Positions 26,642 to 30,007 of a stretch of 30,007 nt of DNA are shown one piece after another. A program made the position numbers and the translations under genes. The DNA is taken from IMG/VR virus record IMGVR_UViG_2667527770_000007; one strand, given 5' to 3'. Every line of letters starts with the position of its first letter. Positions within the stretch are counted from its first letter, which is position 1. The stretch comes from a virus (lineage: Duplodnaviria; Heunggongvirae; Uroviricota; Caudoviricetes). Under the pieces are notes generated by a model. That model was not told the DNA's origin, made no database searches, and worked only from the letters and a program-made list of their open reading frames with translations.

Positions 26642-26980
26642 CTATTTCCCTGAATTTACGACGAAACTGCTCGAGCGGACTGAAGCATTCATGTTCATAG
26701 CCTTCACGGAGGTAGATAACCCGTTGTGTTTCCGGCTCCCAACGAATGACTCTGACGGGCACTCCGTAGTGATCTTTGAACCAGCGGTTAACTTGTCGCA
26801 AAGGACTGTCTCCTTCTGCCGGTTGAAATCACCCACAGCCCACTCTGCAAAGCTGTGGGTTACAATTTCCCTGTCACCTGGTACATTCACTGCATAGCAA
26901 TACTCCACCTTCGCTTTTCCACCCGGTACAGGAAGCGCAATCAGTTGCGAGCGACGGTAGTGTGTTGTTAAACTGTTCAT
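26642..26980 (-). CDS. Hypothetical protein, probably frameshifted (C-terminal half better encoded in the overlapping frame 26589-26801)
   Basis: 112-aa ORF whose C-terminal 50 aa are low-complexity and Ser-rich, while the overlapping frame gives a protein-like sequence ([39 protein letters not shown]...) that only begins at a TTG. Confidence 0.4.
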
Positions 26981-27561
26981 GCGTTAGTTTCTCCACAACC
27001 AGAAGCAATCGACGCCACGACGCCCGGAGCTGCACACTCGCGGGCGTTACTCTTTTCCGGCGCACAAAAAACACGAAATAACAGTGTTAAATGCTCCTGC
27101 CACTTCGCCATTACTTGGTAGCTGTTCTCTTCGATTTGCTCACGCTCAGCTTGGTCAATAACTCCATCAGCAGTTGCCTTGCGTAAGTACTGGGAATGCT
27201 TGCCAATCCATTCTATTGACTCCATCAGCCGCTGATTAATGTCACCATTGTCAATGTCATCAATGACCACCAGCGGCACAAACACCCCATTACTACGACG
27301 GGCTATTGCATCTGTTACATGCCTGGTACCACTGGCATCCTGTAAAACCATGGCCCACTCAAGTGGAAAAATTTGATCCCCACCGCTACGCAGTCTGTTA
27401 TGCAATTGATCTTTTGCTGGGGTGATATCATCAGATTTATACAAACCAAGAATTTCTGCTGCTTCCTCATAGCCATGAGGTAAATCAGCAATCGTTCTTC
27501 GTATTGCTGCCACCAGCCATGCTGGTTGTTTATCAACTTTCCATTCAGGTTCTTTACCCAC
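26977..27561 (-). CDS. CII-position early regulatory protein (possibly YdaT-like)
   Basis: 194-aa ORF immediately downstream of the Cro-like gene. Assignment is positional; family membership not verified. Confidence 0.35.
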
Positions 27562-27588
27562 GGTTAATTCCTCATTTCTGTGGTGTTT

Positions 27589-27786
27589 TTATGCCGCAGC
27601 ACTGTTAGTCTTTTGATATAAAGACACGTCAACTTTCAGTTTCCCGTTAGTAATTTTTTCTAACTGGTACGCTCGGCCTTCAGGAATAATCTCAGGCCAC
27701 TCTGAAACAGACGGATGCTTAATACCTAGGGCTTCGGCGGTTTTACAAACTCCGCCGAAATAATTAATCACGTCGGATTTCCGCAT
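27589..27786 (-). CDS. cro: Cro-like repressor (YdaS/Cro-type HTH)
   Basis: 65 aa (...FGGVCKTAEALGIKHPSVSEWPEIIPEGRAYQLEKITNGKLKVD...), divergent from cI across an operator region. Confidence 0.7.
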   Translation of the reverse strand: MRKSDVINYFGGVCKTAEALGIKHPSVSEWPEIIPEGRAYQLEKITNGKLKVDVSLYQKTNSAAA

Positions 27787-27818
27787 TTCTGTCTCCCGTT
27801 AAATTACGTTAAGCAGAA

Positions 27819-27883
27819 ATGTAGGATATCCAACATACCAATGTCAAGAATCCTACATGGGCATGTGGTAGGATTGCCTACAT
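27819..27883. promoter_or_regulatory. OR operator region: three operators with half-site ATGTAGGA (OR1 27819-27836, OR2 27841-27858, OR3 27863-27883); PR for cro on the minus strand (-35 TTGACA at 27843-27848, -10 TACATT at 27819-27824); probable PRM with cI starting at or next to the transcript 5' end
   Basis: Near-perfect 18-bp palindrome ATGTAGGATATCCAACAT and two related sites at ~22-bp spacing between the divergent cro and cI starts; consensus hexamers with 18-bp spacer. Confidence 0.7.
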
Positions 27884-28535
27884 GATGAACATGAGTGATC
27901 GTATTCGCCAAAGGCGAAAAGAACTGAACCTGACACAACAAGCACTGGCTGATTTGACTGGTGTGAACCGTGTCACGGTTACTGGATGGGAAAAGGACGA
28001 CTACCAACCAAATGGAGCCAACCTTCAAGCCCTAGCCAACGCACTTAAATGCGATCCTCTGTGGCTTGTTAGCGGAAAAGGCTCGCCTGAACCAAAGATA
28101 AATCTAAAACCTGAAATATTCGCAGTTAAAAAAGTCCCCCTCATCTCGTGGGTTCAGGCGGGTTCATGGACAATGACGGAGCCTGGTGTCAGGAAAGAAG
28201 ATGCTGAAGAGTGGGTTTATACTACCGCCCTTGTATCAGAAATGGCATTTGCACTACGGGTCCGTGGTGATTCAATGACCAATCCCCTCGGCTCACCATC
28301 GATACCAGAAGGTTCTATCGTTATCGTAGAGCCAGATATTATTGATACAGAGTGTATTAACGGAAAAATCGTTGTTGCCCATATCAATGGTGGGCAAGAA
28401 GCGACACTCAAAAAATTTGTTGAGGACTGGCCGAACAGGTATCTCGTCCCACTAAATCCTAACTATAAAACTATTGAATGCGGTGAGAACTGCAGAATAG
28501 TTGGTCTTGTCAAACAAGTAATAATGGATTTTTGA
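27882..28535 (+). CDS. cI: CI-type prophage repressor (HTH_XRE N-terminal domain + S24 LexA-like peptidase domain)
   Basis: 217 aa; HTH region (LNLTQQALADLTGVNRVTVTGWEKDD) and S24 autocleavage domain with GDSM Ser motif and downstream Lys (ATLKKF). Confidence 0.85.
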   Translation: MMNMSDRIRQRRKELNLTQQALADLTGVNRVTVTGWEKDDYQPNGANLQALANALKCDPLWLVSGKGSPEPKINLKPEIFAVKKVPLISWVQAGSWTMTEPGVRKEDAEEWVYTTALVSEMAFALRVRGDSMTNPLGSPSIPEGSIVIVEPDIIDTECINGKIVVAHINGGQEATLKKFVEDWPNRYLVPLNPNYKTIECGENCRIVGLVKQVIMDF

Positions 28536-28555
28536 CACATCTTCCTCACTATCGC

Positions 28556-28582
28556 AAAACCGGGGTATCCCCGGTTTTTTTA
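28556..28582 (+). terminator. Intrinsic terminator downstream of cI
   Basis: AAAA-CCGGGG-TAT-CCCCGG-TTTTTTT: perfect 6-bp GC stem, 3-nt loop and 7-T tract, 20 nt after the cI stop; A-tract upstream suggests it may act in both directions. Confidence 0.8.
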
Positions 28583-28597
28583 TGAGCCTATCTTTTT

Positions 28598-28651
28598 ATG
28601 TAGGATAACCAACATAAACTCTTGACACTCACATGTTGGATATCCTACATT
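28598..28651 (+). promoter_or_regulatory. OL/PL: two operators (28598-28615 ATGTAGGATAACCAACAT; 28633-28650 ATGTTGGATATCCTACAT) flanking a rightward promoter (-35 TTGACA 28622-28627, 18-bp spacer, -10 TACATT 28646-28651)
   Basis: The second operator is the exact reverse complement of OR1; promoter architecture is identical to PR. Seen directly in sequence. Confidence 0.7.
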
Positions 28652-28661
28652 TGTTTTTAGA

Positions 28662-28676
28662 GTTGTGGTGAATGCG
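28662..28676 (+). repeat. 15-nt motif GTTGTGGTGAATGCG, copy 1 (at the predicted start of the PL transcript), followed by hairpin GCGCA-GGCTGA-TGCGC
   Basis: Exact 15/15 direct repeat with copy 2 at 29317-29331. Confidence 0.5.
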
Positions 28677-28768
28677 CAGGCTGATGCGCGAAAGACATTG
28701 CAGCTATTGCGGAAAAGAGCTGTTCGGCGGGGCCATTAAACGCCCGTATCTGGAGGTTAAAGAACAAA

Positions 28769-29044
28769 ATGAAAGTCCAGATTTTAAACAATAGTGGTGA
28801 AGTCGTTTGGTCATACGACATAGCCGCTCCTGTAGATCAGAGCGGCGATAGCTGGACCAATGGGAAACATCAGATTATGGCTGGAGTTGTATTCTCTTTA
28901 CGCCGTGCTTTGGAACAGGCTGAAGTATTTCCATCAGACCCTGAATGGAAATGGCCTTTTTCTATTTGTCCAAATTCGGAGAGTACATTTCAGAAAATTG
29001 GTCAGAAAGTCGCACTCGAAGAGCATCAGCCAACTGTTTCCTGA
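28769..29044 (+). CDS. Hypothetical protein, first sizeable ORF of the PL (early-left) operon
   Basis: 91-aa ORF with GGAGG 12 nt upstream; its 3' end overlaps the convergent ORF 28962-29207 by 83 nt, so the C-terminal extent is uncertain. Confidence 0.4.
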   Translation: MKVQILNNSGEVVWSYDIAAPVDQSGDSWTNGKHQIMAGVVFSLRRALEQAEVFPSDPEWKWPFSICPNSESTFQKIGQKVALEEHQPTVS

Positions 29045-29207
29045 TTTTTTCAGGTAGCTCGTCGGCATCGCAGAAACAACAACGCTCGATCATGTTGAAA
29101 GCCGATTCGTAGAACTGTTTCTGCTGAGTGTCGCTGAGACAGGAAAAGAGCGACGTTACGATGATTTTATTAATTGCATTATCAAGTTCTTTTTCATCAA
29201 AAGTCAT
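28962..29207 (-). CDS. Hypothetical protein encoded antisense to the PL operon
   Basis: 81-aa ORF (MTFDEKELDNAINKIIVTSLFSCLSDTQQKQFYESAFNMIERCCFCDADELPEK...) with a good RBS (AAAAGGAAAA, 6 nt before ATG). Confidence 0.45.
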   Translation of the reverse strand: MTFDEKELDNAINKIIVTSLFSCLSDTQQKQFYESAFNMIERCCFCDADELPEKIRKQLADALRVRLSDQFSEMYSPNLDK

Positions 29208-29316
29208 TTGATTTTCCTTTTATGTATACGGGCTTAAAAGGATACCACCGAGCCTGAAGTGGTGAAAAGACAGGCACATAACAGCTAAGTATTTTCAACC
29301 AAAGAGAATCCTTAGC

Positions 29317-29331
29317 GTTGTGGTGAATGCG
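29317..29331 (+). repeat. 15-nt motif GTTGTGGTGAATGCG, copy 2, at the start of a structured non-coding region
   Basis: Exact repeat of 28662-28676. Confidence 0.5.
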
Positions 29332-29463
29332 GCTCAGCGCACGCGGGTTAAGGTTGAGGCTGACAGTCGACCTTCTGTGGATACCCACCCGTCTGGTGTG
29401 CAACCTTCGCCAGGCACCGGGAGGCACCCGGCACCACAACTTTATGCTGTGTGTAGTCCCGGC

Positions 29464-29596
29464 GGTACCAGTTTGTACCCTTGCTTCCGGCTGGTACCGT
29501 CCTTTTTACAAAACAGAGAAGAGCATCACCGGACGACGGGCTCATAACCCAATCCATCCGGGCGGCTGCCACCGCAGGTGTTCTTCTCTGTTTTGT
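29464..29596 (+). ncRNA. Candidate structured RNA element: 8-bp stem (GGTACCAG, 29464-29471 / 29491-29498) followed by a 15-bp perfect inverted repeat (ACAAAACAGAGAAGA 29508-29522 / TCTTCTCTGTTTTGT 29582-29596) enclosing a 59-nt GC-rich insert
   Basis: Inverted repeats seen in sequence. The region has no convincing coding frame (the ORF-track frame 29327-30007 has an Arg/Cys/Trp-rich, non-protein-like N-terminal 100 aa). Function unknown. Confidence 0.35.
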
Positions 29597-29644
29597 GGAG
29601 AAACTAATCGGCCTTGCAGGGTCGATATGATGAGGAGCAGCAAA

Positions 29645-30007
29645 ATGGCTAGCGAACGCAGTACTGATGTGCAGGCATTTATCGGGGAGCTGGACGGCGG
29701 CGTATTTGAAACCAAAATCGGCGCAGTTCTCAGTGAAGTCGCTTCCGGTGTGATGAACACGAAAACCAAAGGTAAGGTCTCACTCAACCTGGAAATCGAA
29801 CCATTTGATGAGAACCGTGTGAAAATCAAACACAAACTCTCATATGTTCGCCCGACTAACCGCGGGAAAATTTCCGAAGAAGACACCACCGAAACGCCGA
29901 TGTATGTCAATCGCGGTGGTCGCCTGACTATTCTGCAGGAAGACCAGGGACAGTTACTGACTCTTGCCGGTGAACCTGACGGAAAACTCCGCGCAGCAGG
30001 TCGTTAA
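29645..30007 (+). CDS. Hypothetical early protein (120 aa), function unknown
   Basis: ATG at 29645 preceded by GAGGAG with 6-nt spacing; stop TAA at 30005-30007. The ORF-track N-terminal extension to 29327 is rejected. No family recognised. Confidence 0.55.
   Translation: MASERSTDVQAFIGELDGGVFETKIGAVLSEVASGVMNTKTKGKVSLNLEIEPFDENRVKIKHKLSYVRPTNRGKISEEDTTETPMYVNRGGRLTILQEDQGQLLTLAGEPDGKLRAAGR

Follow-up and report, generated by a model that had tools for sequence, protein, structure and literature searches.

The 30,007-nt window analysed here, from a virus of the class Caudoviricetes (IMG/VR record IMGVR_UViG_2667527770_000007), contains an exact 15-nt direct repeat, GTTGTGGTGAATGCG, in only two copies, both on the + strand and 655 nt apart: copy 1 just behind the leftward promoter PL and copy 2 ahead of a yfdP-like gene (Table 1). 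The 15-mer is probably not a free-standing signal but the first stretch of a structured, modular RNA domain of phages, of the kind known from the small RNAs (sRNAs) STnc100 and PasD. Copy 2 in all likelihood starts a functional module, and the two copies most likely represent two sister modules that share one allele of the closing helix, P1, within a single PL leader. The initial annotation had read the repeat as an RNA-level signal at transcript 5' ends, for instance a nut- or put-like antitermination site, or as a protein-binding site for an early regulator. Its RNA-level nature holds up, whereas nut- or put-like antitermination, a regular promoter-proximal placing and conservation of the 15-mer as a whole do not.

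A scan of the window finds the pair as it had been described, and the repeat grows to 20 nt when one mismatch is allowed (TTAG[A/C]GTTGTGGTGAATGCG). By a rough estimate of our own, about 0.4 exact 15-mer direct pairs are expected by chance per 30-kb window and about 0.03 within 1 kb, and three other repeat families seeded by at least 13 nt occur in the window. Taken alone, the pair count is modest evidence, the repeat being mildly unusual statistically. It is accepted as real because of homology, not because of the pair count: viral contigs were scanned for the 15-mer and for two 3' motifs, and about 110 of the 127 matches to the 15-mer lie within one conserved RNA scaffold. A chance repeat, or a short peptide translated from the ATG within the 15-mer, is extremely improbable. 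One exact pair per 30 kb is not very rare and other short repeats are present, but the same scaffold surrounds the 15-mer in about 110 independent contigs. As for the peptide, the ATG at 28672 opens a 40-codon open reading frame (ORF), that at 29327 opens an ORF running in frame into yfdP, and PGAP calls a frameshifted protein over the copy 2 stretch. However, ORF lengths from this ATG scatter among relatives from 6 to >60 codons, as if random, and members of one type (type S, below) carry GAAUCC and thus have no ATG; a short ORF was rejected. The PGAP call, a 'frameshifted hypothetical protein', lies on the equivalent of 29320-29630 in a 99.5% identical E. coli locus, and is probably an annotation artefact over a structured RNA.

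Each part of the 15-mer has its place in the RNA scaffold. Bases 1-9 (GUUGUGGUG) form the 5' strand of P1, bases 6-12 (GGUGAAU) are a core found in all members retrieved, and bases 13-15 (GCG) start the first hairpin, H1. At copy 2, GUUGUGGUG (29317-29325) pairs with CACCACAAC (29432-29440). The minimum-free-energy fold of 29317-29440 consists of P1 and five hairpins (z = -1.9), the last of them CCGGGAGGCACCCGG (29417-29431), so that the structured region noticed earlier in front of the 120-aa gene folds as a closed multi-hairpin domain. A single-stranded linker and an intrinsic terminator follow, and the terminator is the predicted 3' end of an RNA of ~190 nt.

An Rfam scan aligned 29295-29510 with the full model of STnc100, a gammaproteobacterial prophage sRNA (RF02076; 40.5 bits, E 5.9e-7); over the whole window, no Rfam family was matched at gathering level. 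Both the conserved UGGUGAAU and the 5' side of the closing helix fall within the 15-mer in this alignment. Copy 2 resembles STnc100 in aligning along the whole model, in its closing helix (UGGUGAAU 5' and CACCGGGAGGCACCCGGCACCA 3'), in its internal hairpins, in its 3' intrinsic terminator and in its prophage setting. It has the complete closed arrangement, with UGGUGAAU on the 5' side and the CCGGGAGGCACCCGG hairpin and CACCA on the 3' side of several hairpins, of which copy 1 has only the 5' half. Conversely, the first and inner hairpins of copy 2 differ from those of STnc100, and copy 2 lies in a PL leader upstream of yfdP, whereas the published STnc100 copies lie elsewhere, downstream of stx2 or near lysis genes (PMC12370729).

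The relatives retrieved fall into three types. Type A reads GGUGAAU-GCGCA GGCUGA UGCGC on its 5' side and AAGCCGG AGAUCAGCA CCGGC-CACC on its 3' side. Type B, represented by copy 2, has an H1 that begins GCGGCUCAGCGC, and type S, which comprises STnc100 proper and PasD, an H1 that begins CCCCCUGUGCGG; both end in CCGGGAGGCACCCGG-CACC. All three share a 5' GGUGAAU and a 3' CACC, and between the 5' and 3' parts lies a hypervariable insert of 20-190 nt. Copy 2 is thus a divergent member of a known family, and type A is a sister type that Rfam 15 models do not detect.

The evidence that this feature is an RNA comes from how these relatives vary. Among 48 distinct elements with the 15-mer, 47 have CACCACAAC (with at most one mismatch) 61-191 nt downstream, and all internal substitutions in that strand are G-U compatible. 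The bases before GGUG vary and covary with those after CACC (GUUGU/ACAAC, GUGUU/AACAC, UGAU/AUCA, GCAU/AUGC, GUGUA/UACAC, GAUGC/GCAUC and more). In 104 distinct type A scaffolds, double-sided changes number 13-32 at each of three of the P1 pairs beside the invariant GGUG/CACC, and every one of the five pairs of H1 covaries around a fixed GGCUGA loop; no such score was reached by any of 500 shuffles or by any slid register. Likewise, four P1 pairs covary in 31 type B and S sequences including the window, three of them with 12-14 double changes. In all, strong covariation of P1 and the first hairpin spans >130 distinct relatives. Because single substitutions are G-U compatible on the + strand, the feature works at the RNA level, in the operon's sense orientation. 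The same strand-specific pattern makes a DNA site for an early regulator unlikely, and the 15-mer is not conserved as such: only GGUGAAU is kept, whereas the GUUGU part changes together with its pairing partner.

A relative known from experiment is PasD1 of enteropathogenic E. coli (EPEC) E2348/69, a 173-nt prophage sRNA with Hfq-dependent stability, for which RNA-seq and northern blots provided the map (PMC8550237, table S6); Hfq dependence on northern blots has been shown for PasD only (PMC8550237). PasD1 (NC_011601, 1060260-1060432) and PasD2 are the EPEC homologues of EcOnc13. The first bases of PasD1, GCAUGGUGAAU / GCAUGGUGAAUCC, are the homologous P1 strand; its own TTGACT...TAAAAA promoter precedes them, and a core, a linker with the predicted seed UGUGAG and a terminator follow. 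PasD and the window element are alike in the 5' end at the P1 5' strand and GGUGAAU, and in the succession of structured core, single-stranded linker and intrinsic terminator. They differ in that PasD has a shortened 3' hairpin, another P1 allele (GCAUGGUG), a seed (UGUGAG) absent from the window element, and a position downstream of Q, in the late region. A 2026 preprint considers PasD and STnc100 to be structural homologues of unknown function (bioRxiv 10.64898/2026.05.13.724894). The anti-sRNAs AgvB and AsxR, found at lambdoid 'moron' sites (PMC4104026), invite comparison too: they are prophage-borne, combine a conserved with a variable part, occupy conserved lambdoid positions and bind Hfq (PMC4104026). 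Unlike the window element, however, they are 51-60 nt long, have a variable 5' end and a conserved 3' end, form Rfam families of their own and show no sequence relationship to it.

From these likenesses, a mechanism can be proposed. When PL is derepressed, the 124-nt copy 2 domain would fold behind the polymerase, closed by P1. Most transcripts would stop at the terminator (29461-29507) and release a U-tailed RNA of ~190 nt, which would act like PasD and STnc100, Hfq-associated trans-acting sRNAs, and might pair with targets through the unstructured linker or its variable parts. Read-through would supply yfdP and the remaining early-left operon. There is a roughly even chance, in our judgement, that the complete unit yields such an Hfq-type sRNA upon derepression of PL while its terminator attenuates entry into yfdP; expression, Hfq binding and trans action of the window element are what we infer.

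Several observations weigh against this account. The score of copy 2 (40.5 bits) falls below the STnc100 gathering cut-off of 47 bits, and the type of copy 1 is invisible to the STnc100 model. No consensus-like promoter is evident directly before copy 2; therefore, the 5' end would need processing, or the domain would remain within the PL transcript. About half of the type A relatives lack a nearby terminator and several abut a start codon, so that they look more like a cis element than an sRNA gene; a terminator lies within 160 nt in 41 of 90 type A, 6 of 16 type B and 32 of 38 type S elements. Finally, when species-representative genomes were scanned for GGTGAATGCGCAGGCTGATGCGC, the exact 23-nt type A core GGUGAAUGCGCAGGCUGAUGCGC was found in the genomes of 102 species of gamma-, beta- and alpha-proteobacteria (Enterobacterales to Burkholderiales, some alpha). 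Conservation of this core is far above what is usual for Hfq sRNAs, and the domain probably has a function beyond the sRNA label. Because conservation exceeds that of ordinary sRNAs and many members are leader-like, a cis role or a conserved host partner may be considered, although we hold it doubtful. Equally tentative is the broader idea that the GGUGAAU...CACC domain is an unrecognised, very widespread class of phage RNA whose true task would be not base-pairing as an sRNA but action in cis, or binding of a conserved host factor, at the heads of early-left and lysis operons; copy 1 would carry its type A form.

How the window came to hold two copies can be read from its relatives. Copy 1 keeps H1 (GCGCA-GGCUGA-UGCGC, 28674-28689), the hairpin that had been pointed out behind it, but has lost H3, its 3' hairpin, and the 3' strand of P1, and no CACCACAAC-like pairing partner occurs within 300 nt. 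The remnant folds no more stably than shuffled sequence (z = 0.08) and has no match in Rfam, type A giving nothing at E < 10 in Rfam 15. In phage Lys8385Vzw (L001), the same repressor and the same PL are followed by a complete 135-nt type A element that the 15-mer opens and AAGCCGGAGAUCAGCACCGGUCACCACAAC ends, and then by the same terminator and yfdP as in the window; PL directly precedes a complete type A element likewise in loci L075, L086 and L041. A base-by-base walk showed the window to be collinear with Lys8385Vzw from ~26967 to 28747, divergent thereafter and collinear again from 29461, and collinear with SfV from ~28767. Thus, 61 nt of the Lys8385Vzw layout, the 3' part of the element, are replaced in the window by 713 nt, which hold the type B element, the short hairpin before it, an SfV orf33-like gene and the ORF convergent with that gene. 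The SfV-like segment that recombined in cut the type A module after 86 nt, and what is left at copy 1 is a recombination remnant now used as a 5' untranslated region (UTR). Of 5426 complete E. coli genomes, 90 share the arrangement of the window, as do two sequenced phages; 2979 of the 5426 match parts of the query region, a match that also spans the promoter and the start of yfdP.

Since the window itself is a recombinant and the family sits at mosaic junctions, with variable flanks on both sides of the core, the 15-mer might be a DNA-level feature, either an operator of an early regulator or a recombination or module-boundary sequence. This is highly improbable. The crossovers of the window lie at 28747/28767 and 29461, away from the 15-mer, which was rejected as a crossover point. 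The G-U-compatible changes and the covariation with a partner >100 nt away point to RNA, not duplex DNA. The 15-mer also lies downstream of the promoter hexamers, whereas operator-like inverted repeats, as read from the sequence, lie upstream of it and overlap the promoter.

The placing of the family bears on the idea of a signal at transcript 5' ends. Copy 1 begins 10 nt past the -10 hexamer and 3-5 nt past the predicted PL start (~28657-28659), close to the ~5 nt first given. Both PasD1 and copy 1 lie immediately behind a promoter, but the element of copy 1 is truncated. Placing at a 5' end is seen at PL, and PasD1 starts at the homologous nucleotide, but placing just behind a promoter fails as a general rule: a consensus-like promoter stands directly upstream in only 10 of 144 distinct elements, with the PL-adjacent members forming a real subgroup. 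In E. coli phages and distant Proteobacteria alike, upstream neighbours are S24-type repressors or Q antiterminators, and downstream neighbours are yfdP, yfdQ and HD hydrolase genes or holin, lysozyme and spanin genes. Apart from these expected repressor, Q, yfdP/yfdQ/HD hydrolase and lysis genes, no protein family regularly accompanies the element. Two or three elements share a locus in L010, L134, L178, L090, L091 and L103; some of these loci are tandem arrays with elements 260-380 nt apart, type A then type B, interleaved with covarying 'Y' hairpins.

A cis-acting processive antiterminator, put-like but unrelated to put, which would stay on RNA polymerase through the following terminators in early-left or late operons, would suit this placing. 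The element stands at the head of the PL operon or between Q and lysis genes, always in sense orientation, with a terminator immediately after it, and its extreme conservation across Proteobacteria would suit a universally conserved partner such as RNA polymerase. No N-like arginine-rich gene was found between PL and the window end, where the + strand ORFs are the orf33-like and yfdP-like genes (the operon runs beyond the window), whose products have no Pfam match and fall into PHROG families of unknown function. Phage LLS has a similar early-left operon (yfdP, yfdQ and yfbR homologues), and a published analysis of this phage detected no N homologue and proposed put-like RNA antitermination (PMC12315714). 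We nevertheless regard this reading as quite improbable. The element has no likeness in sequence or structure to HK022 putL and putR or to HK639 putL; the PR operon of the window has no counterpart; tandem arrays of two or three elements exist; PasD1 has its own promoter and terminator; and 90 complete E. coli genomes have a truncated PL-proximal copy. HK639, which has a genuine put, annotated as a putL-like RNA at PL, and a Q gene, still carries a type S element with terminator in its late operon (L126, 44805-44925), between the Q gene with tRNA-like sequences and the holin gene.

The specific comparisons with known antitermination sites are negative as well. Like HK022 and HK639 put, the element is a structured RNA encoded right after PL, ahead of a terminator, and the lambdoid phage has no N gene behind this promoter. 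However, the put sites, when read side by side, resemble one another and not the window element, and put homology was rejected: put consists of two stem-loops in ~70 nt, whereas the window family has 3-5 hairpins and a variable insert in a closed helix. The put hallmarks (two stem-loops and the conserved CGAACGGC and CAGGAUGA...GGCAAUG blocks) are absent from the window element. Put serves both early operons, and its read-through of terminators in cis depends on the beta' zinc-binding domain. No GGTGAAT...CACC element lies on the PR (-) side of the window. The PL leaders of SfV type (L003, SfV, 2375-2475; L091, 2968-3068) share ACAGGCAGGACGCCCACGAAGUAGCCGCC...CAGGAUGA, and the CAGGAUGA block also occurs within stem II of HK022 putL and putR; these phages may carry a distant put-like site right after PL. 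Copy 1 is similar to lambda nut in lying near the 5' end of the PL transcript and in having, close to the start, a hairpin of 5 bp and a 6-nt loop. Unlike boxB, H1 belongs as an arm to a larger closed domain, with a covarying stem and an unchanging GGCUGA loop. No boxA (YGCTCTTWA) with fewer than one mismatch occurs on the + strand from 28657 to 29645, and the window total is at chance level; the boxA-like UGCUCUUU strings that precede many relatives each form one side of a covarying hairpin. With neither boxA nor an N-like gene, identity with lambda nut was rejected.

A riboswitch-like or factor-sensing leader, in which the conserved junction would bind a ligand or host factor and set expression of the downstream operon, has some appeal given the aptamer-like anatomy (invariant core, covarying stems, variable-length insert), the wide distribution, and the fact that a terminator comes after some members and a ribosome-binding site directly after others. 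The complementary and near-invariant loops GCUGA (H1) and UCAGC (H3), with one compensatory variant (GCGA/UCGC in L082), would permit a loop-loop contact. Such a contact is possible, but the case for it consists of conservation and this single compensatory example. We judge a sensing leader very unlikely. In the window, L062 and PasD1, the terminator hairpin forms even when P1 is forbidden; riboswitch-type coupling of P1 and terminator was not seen, and no alternative pairing links the domain to an expression platform. Downstream genes are heterogeneous, and tandem arrays and stand-alone promoter-terminator units exist.

The features on which this account draws are collected in Table 1. The + strand here corresponds to the 'leftward' direction of lambda, with Cro-like, CII-like and replication genes on the opposite strand.

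Table 1. Features around the two copies of the 15-mer (positions in the 30,007-nt window).
Feature	Position	Strand	Description
cI-like repressor gene	27882-28535		HTH_3 and Peptidase_S24 domains
Intrinsic terminator	28560-28581	+	After the cI-like repressor gene; CCGGGG-TAT-CCCCGG, then T run; read from sequence
PL-like sigma-70 promoter	28622-28651	+	TTGACA (28622-28627), 18-nt spacer, TACATT (28646-28651); 10/12 match
Copy 1 of 15-mer	28662-28676	+	P1 5' strand, GGUGAAU core, first H1 bases
Truncated type A domain	28662-28747	+	First 86 nt only; now 5' UTR of orf33-like gene
SfV orf33-like gene	28769-29044	+	91 aa; phrog_3195, E 8e-64; in the recombined-in module separating the copies
Convergent ORF	28962-29207	-	81 aa; phrog_3311, E 3e-55; same module as orf33-like gene
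Short hairpin CUAAG...CUUAG	29285-29315	+	Adjoins copy 2 upstream; local version of covarying 'Y' hairpin
Copy 2 of 15-mer	29317-29331	+	Opens type B domain
Type B (STnc100-like) domain, complete	29317-29440	+	124 nt; P1 encloses five hairpins
Linker	29441-29460	+	Single-stranded, 20 nt
Intrinsic terminator	29461-29507	+	GGCGGUACCAG (29461-29471) pairs with CUGGUACCGUC (29491-29501), then UUUUU (29503-29507)
tRNA-like 'Y' module	29513-29591	+	Stem ACAGAGAAGAGCA/UGUUCUUCUCUGU; between terminator and yfdP-like gene
yfdP-like gene	29645-30007	+	120 aa; phrog_204; first conserved gene of early-left operon

The yfdP-like gene takes its name from the PGAP annotation of the 99.5% identical E. coli locus. 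Within the recombined-in module, the orf33-like gene and the 81-aa ORF overlap by 83 nt at their 3' ends, and both belong to PHROG families of unknown function. Further along, GUGAAAAGACAGGCACAUAAC (29262-29282), upstream of the short hairpin, resembles the 3' end (hairpin and CACACAAC) of another scaffold type seen in L080, L095 and L031, which suggests that a further unit, now decapitated, may once have lain near this position.

A 'Y' hairpin precedes most family members in E. coli phages, and its stem covaries elsewhere (AAGAGCA/UGCUCUU, AAGGACA/UGUCCUU, AAUGACA/UGUCAUU and others). One arm of the tRNA-like 'Y' module behind the terminator carries GGGCUCAUAACCC (29538-29550), identical to the anticodon stem-loop of the E. 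coli initiator tRNA-fMet, and a degenerate GUUUUGUGGAGAAAC comes after the module. Fetched loci totalling 3.8 Mb contain the pattern GGGNYCATAAYCC at 58 places, 57 of them within 500 nt of a family element; ARAGORN, run on the scanned loci, called none of the GGGNYCATAAYCC sites a tRNA. The module might be a decoy or a processing signal. A same-strand tRNA lies within 300 nt of ~12% of elements, and ARAGORN made no tRNA call at the hairpins upstream of elements; a linkage of elements to tRNAs was dropped on these grounds.

Some further observations concern the variable parts of the family. The type A inserts of one lineage (L118, ~1590 on the - strand; L094; L105) resemble nt 254-282 of 16S rRNA; the L118 lineage insert, GGTGGGGTAATGGCTCACCATGGCGACGA, is identical at 26 of 29 positions (blastn-short E 2e-4, with one rrn operon only as target). 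Capture of host RNA by inserts was dropped as a general rule, this being a single lineage. Strings like a T arm (GGTTCGAnTCC) occur in other inserts. GUUGUG is similar to the seed of GcvB. In L001 (2745-2760) and many E. coli phage copies, the 3' strand of P1 and its flank often spell CACAACA; at copy 2 of the window, the flank gives CACAACU. For AgvB, a prophage anti-sRNA, CACAACA has been quoted as the consensus of GcvB R1 targets (PMC4104026).

For the phage, the outcome is that a suspected antitermination signal is reassigned to the start of a known kind of prophage small RNA, its duplication being a recombination scar, and that a stretch of RNA left unannotated or mis-annotated in E. coli genomes is accounted for. 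Nature offers a matched comparison here, with the same PL in front of a truncated copy in the window and of an intact one in Lys8385Vzw. For the family, the relatives make it much larger and much more conserved than its Rfam entry implies, with members at the heads of early-left and lysis operons of temperate phages across Proteobacteria. If the doubtful reading as a cis-acting or host-factor-binding class were true, the domain could, for example, be a new way, unrelated to put, of modifying RNA polymerase or termination in lambdoid phages without N, and the STnc100 and PasD 'sRNAs' would be its terminated by-products. Known biology accounts for most of the nut- or put-like suspicion; what deserves pursuit is how broad and how conserved the superfamily is.

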